From assembly GCA_963727625.1 (NCBI GenBank), contig CAVSHR010000002.1, positions 512,001 to 576,000 of the forward strand: DNA of 64,000 nt. Direction: 5' to 3'. Within the stretch, counting starts at the first letter, position 1. Every line of letters starts with the position of its first letter. Both the position numbers and the translations under genes were made by a program. The notes beneath the pieces are model-generated. The model searched no databases. It was not told where the DNA came from and was given only the letters and a program-made list of their open reading frames with translations. The stretch comes from an uncultured delta proteobacterium (lineage in GTDB: Bacteria; Desulfobacterota; Binatia; UBA9968). This document shows, piece after piece, positions 12,166 to 22,985 of the stretch.

Positions 12166-12206
12166 TGCGATTGACGACTCGAGGCGTTAGCGATAACAGA
12201 GAAAAC
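12166..12206 (+). promoter_or_regulatory. 41-nt promoter-like element duplicated at 21457-21497
   Basis: 37/41 identical; contains TTGACG. Confidence 0.6.
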
Positions 12207-13314
12207 AAACATTCAAATTCACACCAGACGGGGCAAATCCCGGCCCCGCAACCAACCTTTTCAACACCTTATCAAGCCCCGGTTCGAAAACGGTTTGATC
12301 GAACTGCAATCCCAAAGTCCCGCAGTAGTCCGCCTGAATCATCGCCAGCGACGTTCCACAGTACTGAGCAACCGACAGCGGATTCTCCCCCCGCCTGATC
12401 GCTTCCGTGATAAACGTATGCCGCGTGGCGTAGAATTTCCTATGTCGAATTCCCAATTTCTTTAGCGGACCGCCCCAATTATGCTCACTCCACTTCCTTG
12501 CGTTCATAGGCTCCCCGTTCTTATTCACAAAAATATGCTTAAGCCCTAACTGAAGCGAAGGCAGAATTTTCAGAACGTTCAACACAGGTTCCCCAAAGTG
12601 AATCGTCCGCGCACTGCCAAACGTTTTAGGCCCCGACTCGCTGCCCATGTATCTCGATTTGCTGATTGATAGAGTCTGCCGCTCCAAGTCCACATCGGCC
12701 CAGGAAAGCGCCGAAGCCTCAGACGGACGCATACCCGTATGAAACAACGTAAAAACCCAAGGGAAATAAAAGAAATCATTCTCAGCCCAGTAAGCCACAA
12801 TTTTGTCCCGCTCTTCCGCTGTAAACGGGTCTGGCTTCGCCCGCTGGTTCCGAGGCCATTCAATGTCAATAAACGGGTCTCTCCCCTTCAACGCCTCGAA
12901 ATCGCCCCGTGCGCCCTTGTAAAGCGCTCTAAATGAACCGTCAACGACATTTCGAGCAGTTTTCACGCTCAGGCCCTGCTGTAGCAATTGCCCCCTAAAT
13001 TCAATCAATTCGCCCGTTCCAATGGCCAACAAGCGCCGGTCTTTGAATCTGGGAAGAATGTAAGCCCGGAAATGTTGGTTATAGTCCCGCACCCGAGATC
13101 GCCGGTAGAGCGGTTCAATCTTAGTCTTGATCCATGAATCATAATACTCCTGAACAGTAGGTGTTGGCGTCAACCCGTACTGTCCCTTGATGTATTGCTC
13201 AAGCCGATGTTGAGCCAGGCCTTTTTTCGTCGTCTTTAGCGACTTCGTCACGCTTCCGTCAATCAGATACCACCTAGAGCCTCGGTCTTTCCGCTGTTTG
13301 ATGTGTGGGGGCAA
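12187..13314 (-). CDS. Tyrosine recombinase/integrase
   Basis: HTGMRPSEA, PKT, FYATRHTF, ADY catalytic motifs; AGGAGG RBS before TTG; C-terminus LVAGPGF is the antisense tRNA end. Confidence 0.92.
   Translation of the reverse strand: MPPHIKQRKDRGSRWYLIDGSVTKSLKTTKKGLAQHRLEQYIKGQYGLTPTPTVQEYYDSWIKTKIEPLYRRSRVRDYNQHFRAYILPRFKDRRLLAIGTGELIEFRGQLLQQGLSVKTARNVVDGSFRALYKGARGDFEALKGRDPFIDIEWPRNQRAKPDPFTAEERDKIVAYWAENDFFYFPWVFTLFHTGMRPSEASALSWADVDLERQTLSISKSRYMGSESGPKTFGSARTIHFGEPVLNVLKILPSLQLGLKHIFVNKNGEPMNARKWSEHNWGGPLKKLGIRHRKFYATRHTFITEAIRRGENPLSVAQYCGTSLAMIQADYCGTLGLQFDQTVFEPGLDKVLKRLVAGPGFAPSGVNLNVCFLCYR
12234..12254 (+). other. att site: tRNA-fMet 3'-end fragment CAAATCCCGGCCCCGCAACCA
   Basis: T-loop remainder + T-stem + CCCCGCA-ACCA acceptor end typical of initiator tRNA; 5' part of the tRNA absent. 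Confidence 0.8.
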
Positions 13315-13507
13315 GGATGGCCTCCTGAAAAGGAATTTCTAGCCCATGCAAAACCCGGTAAAAAGCATCAAGCCTCGGCATCTGGCCTTGCAAAATTTTC
13401 CCCAGGGTTTTGTTATTAACCCCACATACTGCACATGCGTCAGCGACTTTCAATTGCTTGGCTTCCATCGCTTGCAGTATACGGGCCACGTTAATCGTTA
13501 TATTCAT
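13274..13507 (-). CDS. Small Cro/XRE-like HTH protein
   Basis: 77 aa, VADACAVCGVNNKTLGKILQG helix-turn-helix pattern; overlaps the int start. Confidence 0.7.
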   Translation of the reverse strand: MNITINVARILQAMEAKQLKVADACAVCGVNNKTLGKILQGQMPRLDAFYRVLHGLEIPFQEAILAPTHQTAERPRL

Positions 13508-13534
13508 TGACTCACCAAAGGTCAGTCAGCAGGA

Positions 13535-13789
13535 TCACGAACCTTTGACCACTTTTCTAAGCCCTGGTTCACGATATTTTTCCATTGCTTCCCGTACGCT
13601 AGCCGCAGCCCCTTTCACTAGCATCTTAAGCCCATGGGGTTTCAGCGAGACGGCCAAATAAAGCAGCGCTGCCGCCCGCATGAATTCACTGACCTTCATG
13701 TCCAGTTTCTCAGCAGCTTCCTCAAAGGCTTGTTTATCCTGCGCTGACACTCTAACCATGATAACTCGACTACGATCCCGTGTTTCCAT
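13535..13789 (-). CDS. Ribbon-helix-helix (CopG/DUF1778-like) protein
   Basis: VIMVRVSAQDKQAFEEAAEKLDMKVSEFMRAAA; GAGGAGG RBS. Confidence 0.75.
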   Translation of the reverse strand: METRDRSRVIMVRVSAQDKQAFEEAAEKLDMKVSEFMRAAALLYLAVSLKPHGLKMLVKGAAASVREAMEKYREPGLRKVVKGS

Positions 13790-13976
13790 AACGCCCTCCT
13801 CATGTGTAATGCGTGTATATCATTATAGCTCAATATGTGTCAAGCGCTATTTTGACCGTATATAACAAGTGAACCGGACGCACGGCCAAGCGACGCAGCA
13901 ACCTAATATTTGACACATCCCACCTAAAGAAAGTAAGTTTACGAAGGGCTTTGATAATTTGCTTGTTGGAGGCTCT

Positions 13977-16535
13977 TTGGAAATTCCGCTCGTCGTTACA
14001 ACTTCCGGGTTATACTCCCGCCTCGGAGGTGATTCAGACCTTTTGACTGCAGTTCTGTCCCTGCGCTCGGTCGCGGGCAGTCTCGCCGAGACCGTTTCAC
14101 GCACAGTCCCTGGCTTCACCGATCACAGCCTCAGACACATGGACGCCCTCTGGAGTGTCAGCGATCGTATACTTATTCAGCAAGAGTTGATGGCTTTGTC
14201 GTATGGCGAGGCATTTCTTTTGGCGTGCGGATTTTATCTTCATGATATTGGCATGGCATACGCCGCGACATCCGAAGGCCTGGCACGCGTCCGCTCGTCG
14301 CCCGTGTACGCGAGCGCCATGGCAACCGCCAGTGCCGCCACGGGCGCGAAAACAGATCGAGCCTTAGAAGCAAGAGCAATTGCAATCGCTGTTCGGCAAC
14401 TTCATGCAGACGCAGCGATCGAACTGGCTACAAGCCCAGTGCCAGGTACAAACATCCACTTGTTTGAAAGTAGTTCTGTCCGAGATTCATGGGCGGAAAC
14501 CGCTGGTCGTATCGCTACTAGTCACCATTGGAGTCTAGAAACCATTGAGCGCGAGCTAGGTTCCCAAGGGGTGATTCCTCTGCCAGGTGGTCGCAGGGGT
14601 GACCTCGGATATATCGCCTCGCTTCTCCGTATTGTGGATTATGCTCACATTAATAGAGACAGGGCACTAACGATTGACCGTGCATTCCGCCCACCTATCG
14701 AGCGGGAGAGTTTGATTCATTGGCTTGCGCAGGAACATGTCGACGGCCCAGCCCGGGACGGTGCTGACCTGGTTTACCGAGCATCAAGCGCGATTTCAGA
14801 TGTTGACGCCTGGTGGACATACTATGAAATGCTTAAAGGACTTGATGAAGAAATACGCGCAGTTAGACGTTATTTGGACCGACGCTTAGTGAGCCAAGGC
14901 CGCTTTTCGCTGCAGGGTGTTCGAGGCGCCACATCTCCCGAAGAGGCTGCCGTCTTTGTTCCTACCTCTGGGTTTCTTCCGATAGAAATTAACTTACGTA
15001 CCGGCTCAATCGAACGGTTGGTACAACTCCTCGCAGGCGAATCACTTTATGGCCCCGATCCGATGGCGGCCGTACGCGAATTGATTCAAAACGCGCGTGA
15101 CGCCGTCATGCTAAAAACTGCTCTTGCGGCTACGGAATTTGATAGAGCTACCCTCTCCATCCCCATCCGCATAGCACTCAAAACAAATAGTTCCGCCCCG
15201 ATGTTGGAAGTCATGGATTCAGGTATAGGAATGACCCAAAAAGTTATGACCGACTACCTTATTTCGATTGCTTCCGATTATTGGACGTCGCAGATAGACA
15301 TCGATTTTCCGGGAGCTCGTGATCGGGGCTTCCACCCAGCGGGTAAATTCGGAATCGGATTCCTCTCCGTGTTCATGTTAGGTGAAGAGGTCACTGTAGA
15401 GTCCAATCGTGACGGAGGAGAACGTTATCAGCTTCATCTCCGAGGCGTAGGCCGGCGAGGTGAAATCCTAAGTCGAGTTGGACCATCCGGCAGCGGCACG
15501 GCTGTCCGTATATCTCTGAAACCGCAAGTCGTTGAGGCCCTTCGACCCCTTAGCGATCTAGTCAAAGTGTACGCTCCGATGCTGCCGCACAACCTAGAAG
15601 TCGAAGTAGACGGTCAACGCACAAGCATTCCAGCAGGCTGGTTACAAGAACTAAACGCTGATGAGTTCCTTAAGTGGACACTTAACGCCGTCTCGAAGCT
15701 GCAACGTAACCGAGCTGGCAGAACTTGGGATGACCGGAGGCTACCCCGCTCGATGTTTTTTCGCTACGGAATGACAGAGGAGCCCACAACGTGGCCCACA
15801 GGCTGGCCCGAATACCAAAATGCACATGTCCGATTGCTCGCCTCTTTTCACAATTACAGCCTTTTGTGTCTAAGAGGCCTGGCGATTCAACCCATTGCGA
15901 CGCCAGGTTTCGTTGGCGTTATTGACCTCGAATCAGCAACACCTGATGTGAGTAGAAAACAAATACTGAACAAGGATGTAACGGATATTATTCGTCACGC
16001 AAATCAAACAGTCAGGACGAAAATCGTCGAGAACCTAAACGCCCTGGCCAAGGGTTTACTAATCCAAAAACTCGACTTTGTAGGGATGTGTGTTTCTATG
16101 TATGGCCGAGAGACGATCTTAGAATCATCATTGCCCTGGATTAGCTTACTGAAATTGCCAGGTGAAGTACATTTGATAACTAGCACGATGCTCTTGGAGG
16201 AATTGTCCAAGGCCCCTTCACTATTTATTTCTTACGGCACAGGGCCCTGGACGGCAATGAAGCATTGGGGCGAGCTGAACTCGCAATCTTTGAGCGGTGC
16301 GCCAGCAGTAGTGCTCGATGATCTTCGCGGCGACAACTTGCGCTATCATGGCGGCTCAGAAGAAAAAGTAGGCACTTTGAGCGAGCTTTGGGATGACTGT
16401 GTTGATACGCCGCTATTTGGAACCGTCTTGCGACTCGCTGCCGAAGCGTGGCAGGTCAGCTTAGAGAACCTCACAGGACAAGAAGGGTGGCATCACTCTG
16501 GATCCGTACTTTGGGGTCAGCTCTTAAGACCGTGA
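13977..16535 (+). CDS. HD-domain + HSP90-like (GHKL) ATPase protein, candidate defence protein
   Basis: FTDHSLRH...LHDIGM...SHH...D HD motifs; LYG..AVRELIQNARDA, DSGIGMT, GKFGIGFLSVFM, GT GHKL motifs; GGAGG RBS before TTG 13977. Confidence 0.85.
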   Translation: MEIPLVVTTSGLYSRLGGDSDLLTAVLSLRSVAGSLAETVSRTVPGFTDHSLRHMDALWSVSDRILIQQELMALSYGEAFLLACGFYLHDIGMAYAATSEGLARVRSSPVYASAMATASAATGAKTDRALEARAIAIAVRQLHADAAIELATSPVPGTNIHLFESSSVRDSWAETAGRIATSHHWSLETIERELGSQGVIPLPGGRRGDLGYIASLLRIVDYAHINRDRALTIDRAFRPPIERESLIHWLAQEHVDGPARDGADLVYRASSAISDVDAWWTYYEMLKGLDEEIRAVRRYLDRRLVSQGRFSLQGVRGATSPEEAAVFVPTSGFLPIEINLRTGSIERLVQLLAGESLYGPDPMAAVRELIQNARDAVMLKTALAATEFDRATLSIPIRIALKTNSSAPMLEVMDSGIGMTQKVMTDYLISIASDYWTSQIDIDFPGARDRGFHPAGKFGIGFLSVFMLGEEVTVESNRDGGERYQLHLRGVGRRGEILSRVGPSGSGTAVRISLKPQVVEALRPLSDLVKVYAPMLPHNLEVEVDGQRTSIPAGWLQELNADEFLKWTLNAVSKLQRNRAGRTWDDRRLPRSMFFRYGMTEEPTTWPTGWPEYQNAHVRLLASFHNYSLLCLRGLAIQPIATPGFVGVIDLESATPDVSRKQILNKDVTDIIRHANQTVRTKIVENLNALAKGLLIQKLDFVGMCVSMYGRETILESSLPWISLLKLPGEVHLITSTMLLEELSKAPSLFISYGTGPWTAMKHWGELNSQSLSGAPAVVLDDLRGDNLRYHGGSEEKVGTLSELWDDCVDTPLFGTVLRLAAEAWQVSLENLTGQEGWHHSGSVLWGQLLRP

Positions 16536-16539
16536 TGTG

Positions 16540-16737
16540 CTAAACTAAGCTTTTAATGTACCAACGCGCTTGCGCAGGGGCAGACGCATCTTCTGCCCCT
16601 GCGCAGCTACTGCTAAATTCATAAAACACTCCGACAAATGGCCTGCGAACGAGAAACGCAACCGATCTAGCGCGATGACGTTCCTTATTGAACTTTATCC
16701 TTGCGGCCCGAGCGACACCCGTTTTTAGCCTACCCAT
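16540..16737 (-). CDS. Small basic hypothetical protein (start uncertain)
   Basis: AGGTGG RBS before ATG GGT AGG; downstream of rep; spans the hairpin, so doubtful. Confidence 0.3.
   Translation of the reverse strand: MGRLKTGVARAARIKFNKERHRARSVAFLVRRPFVGVFYEFSSSCAGAEDASAPAQARWYIKSLV
16571..16605. other. Perfect 14-bp stem hairpin (candidate replication origin or terminator)
   Basis: TGCGCAGGGGCAGA-cgcatct-TCTGCCCCTGCGCA. Confidence 0.6.
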
Positions 16738-16871
16738 GTCCCCACCACCTTTTTTATAGAATTCATAAACAATTTTTCTTCCACATTTGGCTTTAAACGA
16801 ACGATCTCGCATTAACCCTCATCTACCCCCCCTCTCACCTCTTATCGAGGCGCACCCCGACGTTGCGAATT

Positions 16872-17564
16872 TCAGAAGAGCTCGACTATCTGACGCTCGC
16901 GTACCTCAAGCAGCCTTCCTCCAATCACCGTTGAGCCCTCAGTCAACACCTCTTCCCACGAAACCAGCAGATCCTGAAAAGTAACGTCCGGCATCTCACG
17001 ATCAAACTTGTAAGCGTAATGCACGTCATGGCGAACCAACCTCAACATTCGAACCATAAACTTCCAGCCTTTGCCTATCGCAACCCTCGCACGCTTCCAG
17101 CTCCAGGACATCCTCACCAGTGCCCCCCGCTGATCGGCCAGGTATTGAAGAGCGAAATATCTCCCAACGCGACGAATTGAATTATTCCCCAGATTCATAC
17201 GCTGAATATAAACAATGTACGCTCCGTGAATGGTGTCCCACTGTTCGGAAAGCCAACCTTGATCGATGATGAACGGCCGATCGCCAGCCCAGGCCCAAAC
17301 CATGTGGAGAACTCCGTTGCCCTCCGAGGTTTCCACCACGAACGTTTCGACTCCTTTGTAACCGAGGTCACGTTCAACTCGCCGGCGAAGTTCTTGGAGA
17401 TGGCGACGCAGGAGATGAGCCGGACCATTATCAGCAGTGGTTAGATCGATCCTCGAAATCTGACAATTACGAGATTTTGCTTCGTAGCACCAACTTATAA
17501 GCCGGTTAAATACTCGCTTCTGTTGTTTTGTCCACGGCTTAAAATCACCCTTAGAATTCACCAC
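16872..17564 (-). CDS. Rolling-circle replication initiator (HUH endonuclease-like)
   Basis: Motif I IDLTT, motif II variant GVLHMVW, conserved W..IHG, motif III RYFALQYL (two Tyr); AAGGAGG RBS. Confidence 0.75.
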   Translation of the reverse strand: MVNSKGDFKPWTKQQKRVFNRLISWCYEAKSRNCQISRIDLTTADNGPAHLLRRHLQELRRRVERDLGYKGVETFVVETSEGNGVLHMVWAWAGDRPFIIDQGWLSEQWDTIHGAYIVYIQRMNLGNNSIRRVGRYFALQYLADQRGALVRMSWSWKRARVAIGKGWKFMVRMLRLVRHDVHYAYKFDREMPDVTFQDLLVSWEEVLTEGSTVIGGRLLEVRERQIVELF

Positions 17565-17723
17565 AAAACCTCCTTGGCACGACAGCCAACGGTTTGATTT
17601 TGGTTAGATCAAGGGTAGCCATAGGCAGCCTTTAGGCGCTTTTCCGCTTTTGTAACTTGTCGATTTGTCGGGAACTTAGCAGTTGAAGACTGTTAACAGC
17701 AGACGTTTCGGCGGATTCAAATC

Positions 17724-17903
17724 ATAGCACCATCCAATCCATTACGTGTAGGCCTCATCGGAGCCGCCGGCAGATGGGGACGGCGGGCGCATGTGCCGGC
17801 GCTCAAGGGCGTGTCCGAAGCCGAGCTCTATGCGGTGAGCACGGCGCACGCGGATACCGCCAAAGCGGCGGCCGGGAAGCTCGGCGTGGACCTGGCCTAT
17901 TAG
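17724..17903 (+). pseudogene. 5' fragment of Gfo/Idh/MocA oxidoreductase
   Basis: Translates IAPSNPLRVGLIGAAGRWGRRAHVPALKG...LAY*, a diverged copy of the N-terminus of 20181-21284; start codon is ATA. Confidence 0.85.
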
Positions 17904-18035
17904 AAGAGAGAAGGCTTTTTTTCAATGCACATGGCCCATAGGTGCTCATCGCGGCGCGAAAAAAACCTTGCCGCACCTTTTCGCAATAGATTAACTAGAG
18001 CTTGTCAGGTTTAGGTTAAGGGGTTTACGGAACGC

Positions 18036-20096
18036 ATGCTAAGGTTGTTATGGTCAAGAAGCGATTTTTGGACATGGCTTTTCCTTGATTTTTTATCGCC
18101 CGTTTATTTTTTTACTGCTCTCTTTCTTTATTATCGATATCTCAAAAAGACATCGCGAGGCAGGGTGGATGCTATTAGGGTCGCGTTCTGGTCGTTGCTG
18201 GCTATCGTCGGGTTGCTCCACTTGGCTTTTGGCGGACCCAGGCTCGTGTTATCCGGCCATACGGCTTTTATAAACAGTGTGGCCTTTTCTCCCGACGGTC
18301 AGTTTCTAGTATCAGCGGCAGACGATGAAACTGTCACGATCTGGGACCCCGTCACCGGCGAAAACCTTGAGACTCTCACCTATGTCGATCCCGTTCCTGT
18401 GAATTCGTTAGATTTTTCTCCTGATGGAAAGATCGTCGCGTTGGGGACTTGGAACAAAATAACGCTCTTGAACGTCACTGATGGAAAAGCACTTGCGACA
18501 CTGGGGAAACATCGAGAGCGCGGAGGCACGGATATCGATGCGGTATTATTTTTGTCTAATGCCAAGAAGTTGGTTGCCGCCGACATGAATTCGCTCAGAG
18601 TATGGGACGTTGAATCAAAAACCATCCAAGCTGCGTTGCTTGATGAGAGCAAAGATTTTTTCCAAGCCGAAGCCATAGCTGCCTCTCGTGACGGAAAGAT
18701 CCTCGCGTCGGGAAATCACCGCGGGAAGGTCACCCTTTGGGAAGTACTAGGGAAAAAAAGGATTGTGACGTTTGCGGCACATGGCGACGAAAAGGTGTCG
18801 GCGCTGGCTTTTTCTCCCGATGGCCGCTTGCTCGCCAGTGGCGGACATGACGCACGAACCGTCCTATGGCATTTGAAAGGCAATCAGCCCGAAGAAATTT
18901 TTATCCTGAAAGCGGATACTGGCGATATCAACACCTTGGCCTTCTCGCCTGACGGGAAACTGCTCGCTACCGGCGCATATCACATACGAATATGGAATGT
19001 TGCTACCGGTAAATTGATGTTAACGACTAAAGGACGCCGGGTACGAATCAGAAAAATTGCTTTTTCTCCGGACGGTGCGAGATTGGCGGCCGGAGGTGAA
19101 GATGGAATCATCGAGGTTTGGAGTGTAAAAAGCCGAAAAAATCAATTAACACTCAAAGTCGACGACGGGTTTCCAGTCCTGGCACTCGGATTCTCCCCCG
19201 ACGGCAAGATCCTCGCGAGCGGCACCCGAGGCGGGTTGGTGACTTTCTGGGATCCTGTCAGCGGCAAAAAAAAATCTGTTTTTCAGACGGATGGCAAGAA
19301 ATCCTCTCCAAACATCGGAACAGTAGGCCACAAAGTCGAAGCATTAGCGTTTTCGCCCGACGGAAAGACGCTCGCCGCCGGAACCTGGAAGATCGTGAAC
19401 CTGTGGGACACTGAAACCTGGCAGCTTCGCAGAAACTTCTGGCTGGGCGGAGATTTTTCTATAAAATCGCTAATTTTTTTCCCGACGGGACAGTTGTTTG
19501 CCGCCAATGAGAAAGCTAGCGCGGTATGGACCATTGCCACCGGTGAAAGGGTTTCCGGTGTGGATAAACGCCTGGGCCCGTTGGCGACTCTCTCCCATGA
19601 CGGCAAAATACTCGCGACCGGTAGCGGCTATGGGCTCAATCTTTGGAACACGGGGCGGTGGAGTTTAATGTTCCACCTACAAATGCTTGGACGGAAAAAA
19701 GTAACCTCCATGGCATTTTCCCCCAATGGGAAAATTTTGGCGGTCGGCAATGCTGCCAACGAATTGGCGCTTTGGATTAGTAGCCGGTGGCAGAGAGTGC
19801 CCAACGTTCTGAACAAAGTCGGATGTGGGGGAGCAGTCGTGTCGCTTGCGTTTTCTCCTAACAGTAGGTGGTTGGCTGCCCGAACCGTCCACTCGCGTGC
19901 CCGTTGGGTGTTGTTCTTTTTACCGTTACCGGAGAGCCCGGGGTGTATAACTCTCTTTCGCATAAAGGATAATTATTTTAGCTTTATGCCTTGGCGCGCA
20001 GAAATTGGGGGGAGTGGGTTAAGCTTTTCTTCGGACAGCAAGACCCTGGCAGCTGCTTCCGGCATGAATACGATTAAATTGTGGCAGGTGGAGTGA
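18036..20096 (+). CDS. Membrane-anchored WD40 repeat protein
   Basis: Two N-terminal hydrophobic helices, then >12 (L/V)AFSPDG..LA....D..I.IW repeats. Confidence 0.9.
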   Translation: MLRLLWSRSDFWTWLFLDFLSPVYFFTALFLYYRYLKKTSRGRVDAIRVAFWSLLAIVGLLHLAFGGPRLVLSGHTAFINSVAFSPDGQFLVSAADDETVTIWDPVTGENLETLTYVDPVPVNSLDFSPDGKIVALGTWNKITLLNVTDGKALATLGKHRERGGTDIDAVLFLSNAKKLVAADMNSLRVWDVESKTIQAALLDESKDFFQAEAIAASRDGKILASGNHRGKVTLWEVLGKKRIVTFAAHGDEKVSALAFSPDGRLLASGGHDARTVLWHLKGNQPEEIFILKADTGDINTLAFSPDGKLLATGAYHIRIWNVATGKLMLTTKGRRVRIRKIAFSPDGARLAAGGEDGIIEVWSVKSRKNQLTLKVDDGFPVLALGFSPDGKILASGTRGGLVTFWDPVSGKKKSVFQTDGKKSSPNIGTVGHKVEALAFSPDGKTLAAGTWKIVNLWDTETWQLRRNFWLGGDFSIKSLIFFPTGQLFAANEKASAVWTIATGERVSGVDKRLGPLATLSHDGKILATGSGYGLNLWNTGRWSLMFHLQMLGRKKVTSMAFSPNGKILAVGNAANELALWISSRWQRVPNVLNKVGCGGAVVSLAFSPNSRWLAARTVHSRARWVLFFLPLPESPGCITLFRIKDNYFSFMPWRAEIGGSGLSFSSDSKTLAAASGMNTIKLWQVE

Positions 20097-20180
20097 GGTC
20101 GGGCGCCGGAGCCTATGGGAGTAATGCAGCCGCCTATCCAAGCGTTTCACTGAAGAAACGTATCCAAAAAAGGAAAACCA

Positions 20181-21284
20181 ATGGCACAATTCGATCCACT
20201 ACGCGTAGGCCTTATCGGAGCGGGAGGCAGATGGGGGCCGCGGGCGCACGTGCCGGCGCTAAAGGGCACGCTTGAAACCGAGCTCTATGCGGTGTGCACG
20301 GCGCATGCGGATACTGCGAAGGCGGCGGCGGATAAGTTCGGCGTGGCGTACGCGTACGGCAGCGACGAGGCTATGTATTCTGACGAGCGGGTCGAAGCGG
20401 TGTCGGTCGCGGTGCGCGTGCCGGCGCATTATGAGCTTTGCAAAAACGCCATCGAGGCAGGCAGGCACGTCTTCTGCGAATGGCCGCTCGGCGCCAATAC
20501 CAAAGAAGCCGAAGAACTCGCCGTATTGGCGCGCAAGAAAAATGTCCGCACCATGGTCGGCCTGCAGCGTCGCGCGTCGCCCGCTTATCTCTACATGCGC
20601 GAGCTGATTCAGGATGGCTACGTCGGCCAGGTACTAGCGGTGAACTTGCTGCTCATTGGCAGCGGCGTGTTGACCCGTCCGTCTGATCGCACCTGGCAGC
20701 GCGACGTGACGTTGGGCGCAAACACATTGACGATTACTTTCGGGCACGTGCTCGACGCCATGTGCCTGGTAGCCGGCGAGCTCGCCGAAGTTTCCGCTAT
20801 CGTCTCGACGCAGGTGCCGCAGTGGTTCGAGACCGACACGAAGAAATATGTGGATGTCACCTCGCCCGACAACGTCATGGTTCATGGTCGGCTCGAAAAC
20901 GGCGCCGTCGTCAATGCCTACTGTGGCGTGCAGCCGTACCACGGCAGCGGCCATCGCCTGGAGATTTACGGCAAGGACGGCACGCTCTCGATGATCGGCG
21001 GCGGCGAGGGCGGCGGGGAGCATCAACGCAAGATCATGGGCGGACAAAAGGGCGACAAGGCGCTCCAGGAGTTGACCGTCCCGGAAAAATTCAAGTGGGT
21101 GCCGGAAGCGGTGCGAAGCAGCGGTCCGGCATACGAAGTGGGCCAGCTGTGGGTCAAGTTCGCCGAAGCGATCCGCAGCGGCTCGACCAACGACGCCGAC
21201 TTTGATCATGCGGTGCGCCGCCAGCGAACCTTTGATGCCATCGTGCGCGCTTCAGAGACGGGACAGAGGCAGAAAATAATATGA
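20181..21284 (+). CDS. Gfo/Idh/MocA family oxidoreductase
   Basis: RVGLIGAGG Rossmann motif, HVFCEWPL. Confidence 0.9.
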   Translation: MAQFDPLRVGLIGAGGRWGPRAHVPALKGTLETELYAVCTAHADTAKAAADKFGVAYAYGSDEAMYSDERVEAVSVAVRVPAHYELCKNAIEAGRHVFCEWPLGANTKEAEELAVLARKKNVRTMVGLQRRASPAYLYMRELIQDGYVGQVLAVNLLLIGSGVLTRPSDRTWQRDVTLGANTLTITFGHVLDAMCLVAGELAEVSAIVSTQVPQWFETDTKKYVDVTSPDNVMVHGRLENGAVVNAYCGVQPYHGSGHRLEIYGKDGTLSMIGGGEGGGEHQRKIMGGQKGDKALQELTVPEKFKWVPEAVRSSGPAYEVGQLWVKFAEAIRSGSTNDADFDHAVRRQRTFDAIVRASETGQRQKII

Positions 21285-21438: not shown

Positions 21439-21521
21439 GTCCCTGTTCCAGCCGATTGTGATTGACGACTCGACGGCTTAGCGATAACAGAGAAAACGAA
21501 TAAGCGGGAGGAGCGCTGATC

Positions 21522-22985
21522 ATGGCAAATCGAGCGGCACAAATTCATGACGGGTTGAAGCATCCGGTGATCGACGGCGACGGCCACTGGTTGGAGCCGA
21601 TTCCGATTTTCCTCGAGTACCTGAACGAAGTCGACGGCGCGAAATCTGTGGACCAGATGCGAGCGTTATGGCGCGGACGGGATGCATGGTACCGCGCCAC
21701 CCCAGATCAGCGTCAACAAAGCCGAATCCGTCGCGCCATCTGGTGGGGTGTGACGAGCGACACCTACGACAAGGCGACGGCGCTGCTGCCGGCCTTGCTG
21801 AACGAGCGACTGCCCGAGCTGGGCATCGACTTCGCGCTGATCTATCCGAGCTTCGGGCTGAGCATCAACGGCATGGGCGAGGGCGACCTGCACCGGGCCG
21901 CGGTGCGCGCCTACAACATGATGACGGCCGACATGTTCGCGCCCTTTGCCGCGCGCTTCGCGCCGGTTGCCATCATTCCCACCCACACGCCTGAAGAAGC
22001 TCTTGAGGAGCTGGAGTATGCCGTCGTCCAGCGCGAATACCGGGCGATCATGCTACGCGGAAATCAGGAGCGGACAATTCCAAGCGCGGCGGAAGCGGTC
22101 AATGACCGGCAGAAGGCCGCGTGGTATGTCGATACCATCGCGCTCGACAGCCCTTATGATTTCGAGCCGCTCTGGAAGCGCTGCGTCGAGCTTGGCGTCG
22201 CCGTGACCCAACACTCAGGCAGCGGCCGTTGGCAGGATCGCGCCTCGATCAGCAACTTCACCTACAATCACGTCGGCCACTTCGCCGAATCGAACCATGC
22301 GTTCGCGCGGGGAGTTTTCCTCGGCGGTCTGGTACGACGCTACCCGAGCCTCAATTTCGGCTTCATGGAAGGCGGCGTGAGTTGGGCATGCCAGATGTGT
22401 CTCGACATGATCGAGCACTGGGAGAAGCGCCGCCGCGCCGGCTTGCAGTATCCGAGCGAAACCGACATTGCCGAGATCAACCGGCTGATTGATCGCTACG
22501 GCGATCAAAAGCTGAAGGCCAACGCCGCCGCGCTCATGAACAGTCTGGACGCCTTCCGTCCGGAGTGCAGTCTTGAAGAGCTCAGCCGGCCCGAATATGT
22601 CACGGACGATTTCGAAGCGTCCGGCGTCAACTCAAAAGACGACGTTCGGGCAGTCTTCTCCGGCAACTTCTACTTCGGCTGCGAGGCGGACGATCGCGCA
22701 ACCATGTGGGCCTTCGATCCACGCATGGGCGTGCGGCTTCGGCCGATCTTCAGCTCGGACTTCACCCACTTCGACGTGCCCGATTTCAAGGAGGTGATTC
22801 CTGAAGCGTATGAGATGGTGGAGAGGAACTTCGTGACCGAACAGGATTTCAAAGAGTTCACCTTCACCAACGCCGCGCGCCTGCACACGCGCAACAACCC
22901 GGTATTCTTCAAAGGCACTGTCGTCGAGCGAGCAGTGGTCGATGAGTTGGGACTGAAGACGCGGTTGGCAGCGGCGAAAGCTTAA
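21522..22985 (+). CDS. Amidohydrolase family protein
   Basis: VIDGDGHWLE, FMEGGVSW, FSSDFTHFD motifs. Confidence 0.85.
   Translation: MANRAAQIHDGLKHPVIDGDGHWLEPIPIFLEYLNEVDGAKSVDQMRALWRGRDAWYRATPDQRQQSRIRRAIWWGVTSDTYDKATALLPALLNERLPELGIDFALIYPSFGLSINGMGEGDLHRAAVRAYNMMTADMFAPFAARFAPVAIIPTHTPEEALEELEYAVVQREYRAIMLRGNQERTIPSAAEAVNDRQKAAWYVDTIALDSPYDFEPLWKRCVELGVAVTQHSGSGRWQDRASISNFTYNHVGHFAESNHAFARGVFLGGLVRRYPSLNFGFMEGGVSWACQMCLDMIEHWEKRRRAGLQYPSETDIAEINRLIDRYGDQKLKANAAALMNSLDAFRPECSLEELSRPEYVTDDFEASGVNSKDDVRAVFSGNFYFGCEADDRATMWAFDPRMGVRLRPIFSSDFTHFDVPDFKEVIPEAYEMVERNFVTEQDFKEFTFTNAARLHTRNNPVFFKGTVVERAVVDELGLKTRLAAAKA

Follow-up and report, generated by a model that had tools for sequence, protein, structure and literature searches.

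The window analysed here carries an integrative element, E1, whose integrase gene contains a piece of tRNA gene. The window comprises 64,000 nucleotides of an uncultured delta proteobacterium (Desulfobacterota, Binatia, UBA9968; assembly GCA_963727625.1, contig CAVSHR010000002.1, positions 512,001 to 576,000), and coordinates given without a contig or locus name are positions within it. E1 occupies 12240..17723, that is 5,484 bp with one copy of the hexamer CAAATC counted, and its ends match those of a paralogue on contig C4 of the same genome up to CAAATC. Its G+C content is about 0.50, against about 0.62-0.68 in neighbouring host genes. The integrase gene, int, lies at 12187..13314 on the minus strand and encodes a tyrosine integrase (Int) of 375 amino acids in its off-target integrated form, matching the Pfam family PF00589 (Phage_integrase) with 44.7 bits against a cut-off of 27.1. 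CAAATC stands at both borders, at 12234..12239 on the left and 17718..17723 on the right, as the crossover region and the sole sequence common to both junctions. At the right border homology to the far end of the C4 element stops, and homology to a host oxidoreductase gene begins at 17724.

The attachment core of E1 is copied from the initiator tRNA gene. On the plus strand, positions 12234..12254 (CAAATCCCGGCCCCGCAACCA) reproduce the 3' end of tRNA-fMet, comprising part of the T-loop, the 3' T-stem, the acceptor stem and CCA, and agree in 21 of 21 nt with C4:1355527-1355547. The genome's initiator tRNA gene, located by running ARAGORN on the whole genome, is C4:1355471-1355547; within the window ARAGORN found no tRNA gene. 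Four copies of the 21-nt motif occur in the 6.6-Mb genome of 15 contigs. The complement of 12234-12254 codes for (L)VAGPGF, which places the attP/attL core region inside int, as a sequence-only reading of the window had proposed. From there int runs on into the left flank, and translation of 12187..13314 gives an Int ending in LVAGPGF-APSGVNLNVCFLCYR*. That reading is right about the structure, with int's 3' end housing the attP core and the tail of Int swapped on integration; the explanation as a whole, in which the window holds an off-target copy, we consider probable.

The opposite end of E1 encodes an alternative tail for Int. From 17721 the minus strand reads F-ESAETSAVNSLQLLSSRQIDKLQKRKSA in the integrase frame, and the coding piece at 17632..17721 consists of this phenylalanine, a 28-residue episomal tail and a stop codon at 17634-17632. 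The chance of 28 open sense codons is about 0.26, so the far-end frame taken alone could be accidental. For an unbiased check, we built a profile from 29 foreign tails, none from this genome, and searched it against 2,165 six-frame stop-to-stop pieces of the window. The sole significant match was 17721..17635 on the minus strand (E 7.4e-9), with the runner-up at E 0.97. A mere chance open reading frame (ORF) at the far end was rejected on this homology to the family tails, and the prediction that the circular form of Int would take its tail from the far-end frame held. On its host side the junction is immediately followed by a stop codon, so the piece should be silent unless joined to int. It differs from the C4 copy at 4 residues.

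The paralogue on C4 sits in the true tRNA-fMet site. There the tRNA gene (1355471-1355547) is directly adjoined by a paralogous int whose product is 85.8% identical over 367 amino acids and ends in LVAGPGFEPGTSRL*. The final seven residues and the stop codon are read from the tRNA complement, with the stop in the complement of the anticodon loop. The far end of this element lies about 5.5 kb from int, is 93% identical to the far end in the window, and runs GGCGGATT-CAAATC into CCGGCCCCGCAACCA; after this comes what is left of a second integrase gene, its 3' end. C4:1361040-1361068 contains verbatim the string predicted for the joined ends of E1, with the long tail in frame (ESAEASAVNSLQLLSSQQINKLRKRKSA*), so the proposal that the ends join through CAAATC is borne out. 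The further proposal that joining yields a full T-loop plus the tRNA 3' end stands in part: in the joined form the match to the tRNA spans 23 nt, covering the T-loop, the 3' half of the T-stem, the acceptor stem and CCA, and the 5' half of the T-stem has no match. In the usual integrated state int runs antisense across 44 nt of the initiator tRNA gene (positions 1504-1547 of locus L001; also in loci L003, L088, L093 and L121). Its stop codon then comes from the anticodon-loop complement, which is near-universal in sequence.

The C4 tRNA-fMet locus is also a hot spot. The last third of a second int gene follows the first element (L001 7045-7327, equal to C4:1361045-1361327) and is fused upstream to a second far-end copy that is cut short after ...GGATTC. 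Some 47 kb onward (L002 ~7948; C4:1407948) there is a third att-type junction, whose 28-residue tail is a different one. At C7:171496-171591 ARAGORN reports a 96-nt 'tRNA-Met' of odd sequence that is probably a false call.

Both kinds of ending recur across the integrase family. A protein search returned 481 Int homologues with E<=0.001, and the 120 listed ones were sorted by their C-terminal ends. The ending GPGF-EPGTSRL, a read-through of tRNA-fMet, is found in 54 of the 120, and 18 combine the fMet core with another tail. Fourteen of these tails have 28 residues and the rest 23, 23, 25 and 46; the last residue is Ala or Gly in 17 of them. A further 18 listed homologues have a core from another tRNA and a short ending (for example ASPTGFEPVLPA), at least seven have another tRNA-like core and a long tail of the same kind (four found by script; P0074, P0097 and P0116 by eye), and the remainder have truncated or unclear ends. 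Subfamilies with cores from other tRNAs carry homologous tails.

At the nucleotide level we scanned 192 sources, made up of the window and fetched loci, and obtained 68 core hits in 63 sources; three loci were left out, one of them from E. coli and the other two overlapping the window region. Forty-six continue as tRNA and 22 do not, the latter yielding 18 distinct tails. Exactly 28 residues long are 15 of the 18; the other lengths belong to L117 (23), L109 (10) and the window's accidental ending (15), which is also the sole one of the 18 whose last residue is neither Ala nor Gly. Comparison of homologous tails, a check suggested along with the sequence-only reading, finds both the 28-residue length and the C-terminal pattern conserved.

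In L003, L088, L093 and L121 a tRNA-Met(CAT) gene abuts int, and a 28-residue tail is encoded at the far end, 4-10 kb off, where the displaced tRNA piece sets the reading frame. Altogether the far end encodes a tail in 6 integrated elements. In seven loci (L106, L110, L111, L115, L117, L187 and L188), two of them contigs from viral collections, int and the long tail are contiguous. The 16.6-kb contig of L110 has 8 neighbouring ORFs with one Pfam match at E<=0.001, to DnaJ, at 20.3 bits below its cut-off of 27.8. Int comes in three forms, of about 388 residues when free, 367 when integrated in the tRNA gene and 375 in the window. Genomes with close relatives are labelled Candidatus Binatia, 'delta proteobacterium' and, in one assembly, Blastocatellia. 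A literature search, with subscription journals and supplementary files outside its scope, found no published description of this integrase family.

The swap leaves the catalytic domain whole. VAGPGF forms residues 355-360 and the catalytic tyrosine is residue 330; the att core lies roughly 30 residues past the tyrosine. R196, K230, R298 and Y330 are invariant across 35 integrase sequences; the conserved catalytic positions all lie upstream of the core, and the integrated int genes, of 362-375 codons, are intact. The best match among solved structures is the Tn1549 integrase (6en0; profile E 2.4e-18). Its alignment stops about 15 residues past the catalytic tyrosine, which puts the swap position beyond the catalytic fold. 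The same alignment places a Tyr (residue ~295) at the first His of the signature and a Thr (~321) at the His/Trp position, family-wide. The many integrated copies suggest that integrases of the E1 type are active despite these Tyr/Thr substitutions.

The copy in the window interrupts a host gene instead of a tRNA. Judging from sequence comparison with relatives, the 5,484 bp of E1 are inserted precisely into a gene for a GFO/IDH/MocA oxidoreductase, after the ribosome-binding region and before the start codon. Orthologues were present in 12 of 18 same-genus genomes searched, and the upstream region was read in ten. The relatives' sequence up to the ATG (...gaaactcaccccggaagaggaaaacc) is homologous to the left flank of the window up to CAAATC (...caaattcacaccagacggggcaaatc), with roughly 70% identity between their 5' untranslated region (UTR) and the window as counted by eye. 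On the right, at 17724..17889 on the plus strand, lies the displaced 166-bp head of the gene with its first codons, at most 89% identical to the relatives' orthologues and 83% identical to 20181-20346. Its start codon is now ATA, and E1 cuts it off from its promoter. An intact oxidoreductase gene with its own 5' end and its own ribosome-binding site is present at 20181..21284. Nothing appears to have been deleted at the target, because the two flanks, 5' UTR and then ATG, are adjacent in relatives.

This position explains the ending of the window Int and narrows the crossover. Because E1 sits in the oxidoreductase 5' UTR, the 15-residue ending APSGVNLNVCFLCYR* (12187..12233, minus strand) would be reversed host 5' UTR, here together with the promoter box; the segment is homologous to the oxidoreductase 5' UTR of relatives. 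The sequence-only reading had taken APSGVNLNVCFLCYR for the integrated ending of Int: the translation is correct, and the ending proves to be an off-target accident, the usual integrated form being EPGTSRL. The target resembles the tRNA in CAAATC and a few neighbouring G residues only, and because it has just these in common with the tRNA, strand exchange would be confined to six base pairs of the T-loop. Integration in the 3' part of a tRNA gene is found for the C4 paralogue, L003, L088, L093 and L121; for the window copy the target is a 5' UTR and contains no tRNA. A degraded tRNA gene as the target was considered and rejected, given that ARAGORN calls no tRNA there and that the flanks correspond to the oxidoreductase 5' UTR and start in relatives. 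Eight loci around a methionine-synthase-like gene, seven from relatives and one from this genome's own region, gave no intergenic or oxidoreductase match.

The flanks show further rearrangement. The two oxidoreductase heads (17724-17889 and 20181-20346) are 82.5-83% identical to each other and about equally distant from the relatives. Between them is a 2.3-kb insert, 17890-20180, with a 686-residue WD40-repeat gene at 18036..20096 and no recombinase. The promoter-like box of the interrupted gene lies at 12166..12209 on the plus strand and has a second copy at 21457-21500; similar boxes stand upstream of the oxidoreductase gene in L175 and L181. The box (GATTGACG...TTAGCGATAACAGAG) is repeated in this way upstream of the next gene, 21522..22985, with a similar placement in several relatives, and may be an operator common to a small regulon.

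These arrangements suggest how E1 would exchange the tail of its integrase. In the circle, int would read across the att site into the other end of the element and produce an Int of about 388 residues with the 28-residue tail. The layout of that tail is a helix-like middle, a basic stretch, and then Ser, Val or Thr plus a final Ala or Gly. Strand exchange would take place in the T-loop part of the core, within CAAATC. Integration into tRNA-fMet would move the tail piece 4-10 kb away and leave an Int that ends in EPGTSRL with its catalytic domain whole. Insertion at a secondary site, as in the window, would create a third, accidental Int ending and orphan the head of a host gene. The tail would then be a regulatory appendage exclusive to the episome-encoded Int.

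The pattern of change in the tail points to selection on an encoded peptide. The other two frames of the tail DNA contain stops in all 14 cases examined, the final codon varies as G-C/G-N like a Gly or Ala codon, and the Lys/Arg-rich residues before it are written with varied codons. The tails have diverged to about half identity, yet 15 of the 18 distinct DNA tails keep 28 codons; sequence conservation is poor in the first third. We conclude from this pattern that the open frame and the C-terminal pattern appear to be selected, with most of the tail sequence free to vary. Such conservation shows selection and says nothing on the tail's role.

A role in protein turnover is the mechanism we prefer, and we put it forward tentatively. 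The tail could act as a C-terminal degradation signal of the MuA/YbaQ type and make Int short-lived while the element is free. The window tail ends in QKRKSA and others in QRRKIA, HQRKVA or KRAKSA; the C-terminus of E. coli YbaQ is RAKKVA. YbaQ is said to be a ClpXP substrate and reportedly belongs, in work of Flynn et al. from 2003, to the same ClpX signal class as MuA. ClpX is encoded in this genome. For MuA, the C-terminus is RRKKAI and is recognised by ClpXP. By extension, and with rather more doubt, integration might strip a ClpXP-like signal and leave a stable, differently behaving chromosomal Int, a proteolytic switch on the recombinase itself across the family. It is similarly doubtful, if conceivable by analogy, that the tail instead contacts DNA or a neighbouring protomer and so tunes integration against excision, as reported for Mx8.

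Several observations weigh against our main reading, and some of them favour an explanation in which the swap is real and neutral. The likeness to MuA and YbaQ spans six residues only, and the 28-residue length has exceptions (23, 23, 25 and 46 in listed proteins; 23 in L117 and 10 in L109). Tail differences between close pairs are spread near-evenly over the codon positions, and nonsynonymous exceed synonymous codon changes (for example 4 vs 2, 7 vs 4 and 9 vs 6), amounting to some 56-67% of changed tail codons, little below neutral expectation. A DNA motif, GCTAAGT, stands at a fixed place in many tails, and a Rep-like gene for a 230-residue protein starts 67 nt downstream of the tail piece. 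The conservation may in part be due to promoter or arm-type sites, and the even codon-position spread, the fixed motif and the 67-nt distance mean that constraint at the DNA level contributes. Selection on the tail peptide is, by these counts, weaker than its length conservation suggests. The assembly adds to the doubts: it is a 15-contig draft with 6.3% estimated contamination, and one public run, which held 0.05 of the sampled words, showed no joints, circle junction or empty site and was uninformative, its contigs being short pieces in the cargo gene and an oxidoreductase fragment. Under the neutral explanation the far-end frame would be kept by constraint on the DNA, through attP arm or bending-protein sites or the promoter of the Rep-like gene, and the peptide would be inert; the poorly conserved first third of the tail fits this. 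We think it unlikely, since the length is held at 28 codons in so many tails despite about half identity, the stops in the alternative frames and the variation of the last and the Lys/Arg codons form a coding pattern, and tail homology extends across subfamilies with cores taken from different tRNAs.

Two other explanations concern the window copy alone. It might be a relic moved by some other recombination, such as microhomology joining or deletion of the 5' part of a tRNA gene. The junctions have just 6 bp in common, the flanking half-sites are poorly tRNA-like, and the neighbourhood is rearranged, with its second gene head and its 2.3-kb WD40 insert. Both break points nevertheless coincide exactly with the att core's T-loop position, at which C4 homology also ends, the flanks are adjacent in relatives, and E1 is complete from int to tail piece, which together make a relic very improbable. 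An assembly artefact that joined a free or tRNA-integrated element to unrelated chromosome could draw on the draft state and contamination of the assembly, on the presence of two similar element copies and on the missing junction-covering reads. It would require two misjoins at the same 6-bp core, onto host pieces that are neighbours in relatives, and we regard it as scarcely credible. Collapse of the E1 and C4 copies into one is unlikely because the copies differ by 7-22%. An off-target insertion of an element that swaps the tail of its integrase remains our reading of the window.

The other genes of E1 fit a small mobile element. Overlapping the start of int, at 13274..13507 on the minus strand, is a gene for a 77-residue helix-turn-helix (HTH) protein, a candidate regulator or excisionase whose match to Pfam HTH_3 is weak and falls below the cut-off. 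It has 41 tblastn matches in the fetched loci, directly upstream of int where the int position is listed (for example in L001, L003, L093, L110 and L121). Next, at 13535..13789 on the minus strand, comes a NikA-like ribbon-helix-helix protein of 84 residues (Pfam PF21983, 33.8 bits), conserved in L001, L005, L086 and L093. A cargo gene on the plus strand, 13959..16535, encodes 858 residues with HD-CE and HATPase_c_3 domains (PF24391, 111 bits; PF13589, 34.8 bits). Its product has a GHKL-type ATPase domain, and HtpG/HSP90 models match it weakly. The C4 paralogue lacks this gene and has unrelated small ORFs in its place, so the cargo slot appears exchangeable. The 90-residue ORF at 16540..16812 (minus strand) has no family match and is partly conserved in the 4-kb element of L093, which consists of just the five small genes.

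Another gene of E1 encodes the candidate replication initiator. This protein of 230 residues (16872..17564, minus strand) has counterparts in the C4 paralogue, with 95.2% identity, and in L093, with 69.8%. Pfam, PHROG and NCBIfam gave no match for it. Over 164 residues it is 28.7% identical to the Rep annotated on two 846-bp Thermotoga plasmids (E 3e-6), and this points to a little-known kind of replication initiator. On the minus strand the genes follow one another as 230-residue protein, 90-residue ORF, ribbon-helix-helix protein, HTH protein and int, with the plus-strand cargo gene after the ORF. We read E1 as a small integrative plasmid-like element.

E1 offers a natural family in which a recombinase might report the state of its element. 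Most work on an attP site within int has dealt with phage Mx8 and, where the arrangement is destructive, with archaeal viruses. Elements of the E1 type form a large family, with their 481 homologues coming mostly from soil metagenomes and Binatia-like genomes. The removed piece is short, conserved in length and recognisable by its end motif, so integration-state sensing through the recombinase becomes directly testable, and the three natural forms of Int (388, 367 and 375 residues) suffice to ask whether the element senses its integration state. To the arrangement known from Mx8 the family adds a conserved removable tail, a stop codon drawn from the complement of the initiator-tRNA anticodon loop, and an off-target copy that maps strand exchange to at most 6 bp of the T-loop. 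That copy also displays what the host pays, since one of its genes has been separated from its promoter. If the tail were a degradation signal, a proteolytic switch would be conserved over hundreds of elements and different tRNA targets.

Among known systems, Mx8 offers the nearest parallel. Mx8 targets a tRNA gene, and integration replaces about 112 residues of its integrase by 13. Like Mx8, E1 has its att core inside int and past the catalytic residues, and its free and integrated forms encode different C-termini. Unlike Mx8, E1 exchanges a conserved 28-residue tail for 7 residues, and it is a small plasmid-like element that targets tRNA-fMet in Binatia-like soil bacteria. A tblastn search against 50,697 phage records gave 981 matches, all below 60% identity and the best at 31.9%, with no Mx8 among the 25 listed. 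In Mx8, the int coding sequence contains attP and a new int 3' end arises on integration, by which integrase activity is changed and not abolished; the arrangement is presented as a molecular switch on integrase activity (PMC6070905). The precedent for a changed Int C-terminus that the sequence-only reading drew from Mx8 is supported by that source. By analogy Mx8 is the closest system in how E1 would work.

Other systems share single features with E1. The 'suicidal' integrases of SSV1, pTN3 and pT26-2 also carry att within int, in a compact int-att module, and SSV-type integration splits int into an Int(N) and an Int(C) part, both without activity, a behaviour called exclusive to archaea (PMC8371274). 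E1 differs from them in that its catalytic domain, including the tyrosine, lies whole on one side of the core, so that the split which defines the SSV type is absent. In mycobacteriophage BPs, attP lies in a coding sequence, and upon integration the repressor loses a C-terminal degradation tag; the integrase of BPs-type phages is also described as bearing a C-terminal proteolysis signal (PMC4557955). The gene cut in BPs is the repressor gene, with an ssrA-like tag, whereas in E1 it is int, with a basic stretch and a Ser-Ala end and with degradation hypothetical. In the tails of MuA, YbaQ and E1 alike, a basic stretch precedes a final residue that is small or hydrophobic and that in the E1 type is Ala or Gly. 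In KplE1-type elements the att overlap concerns the int promoter; in E1 it concerns the coding end of int. In domain order and in the aligned catalytic Arg, Arg and Tyr, E1 Int resembles the integrases of Tn1549 and Tn916, and it is set apart from those enzymes by the att site within its gene and the tRNA-derived piece that it encodes.

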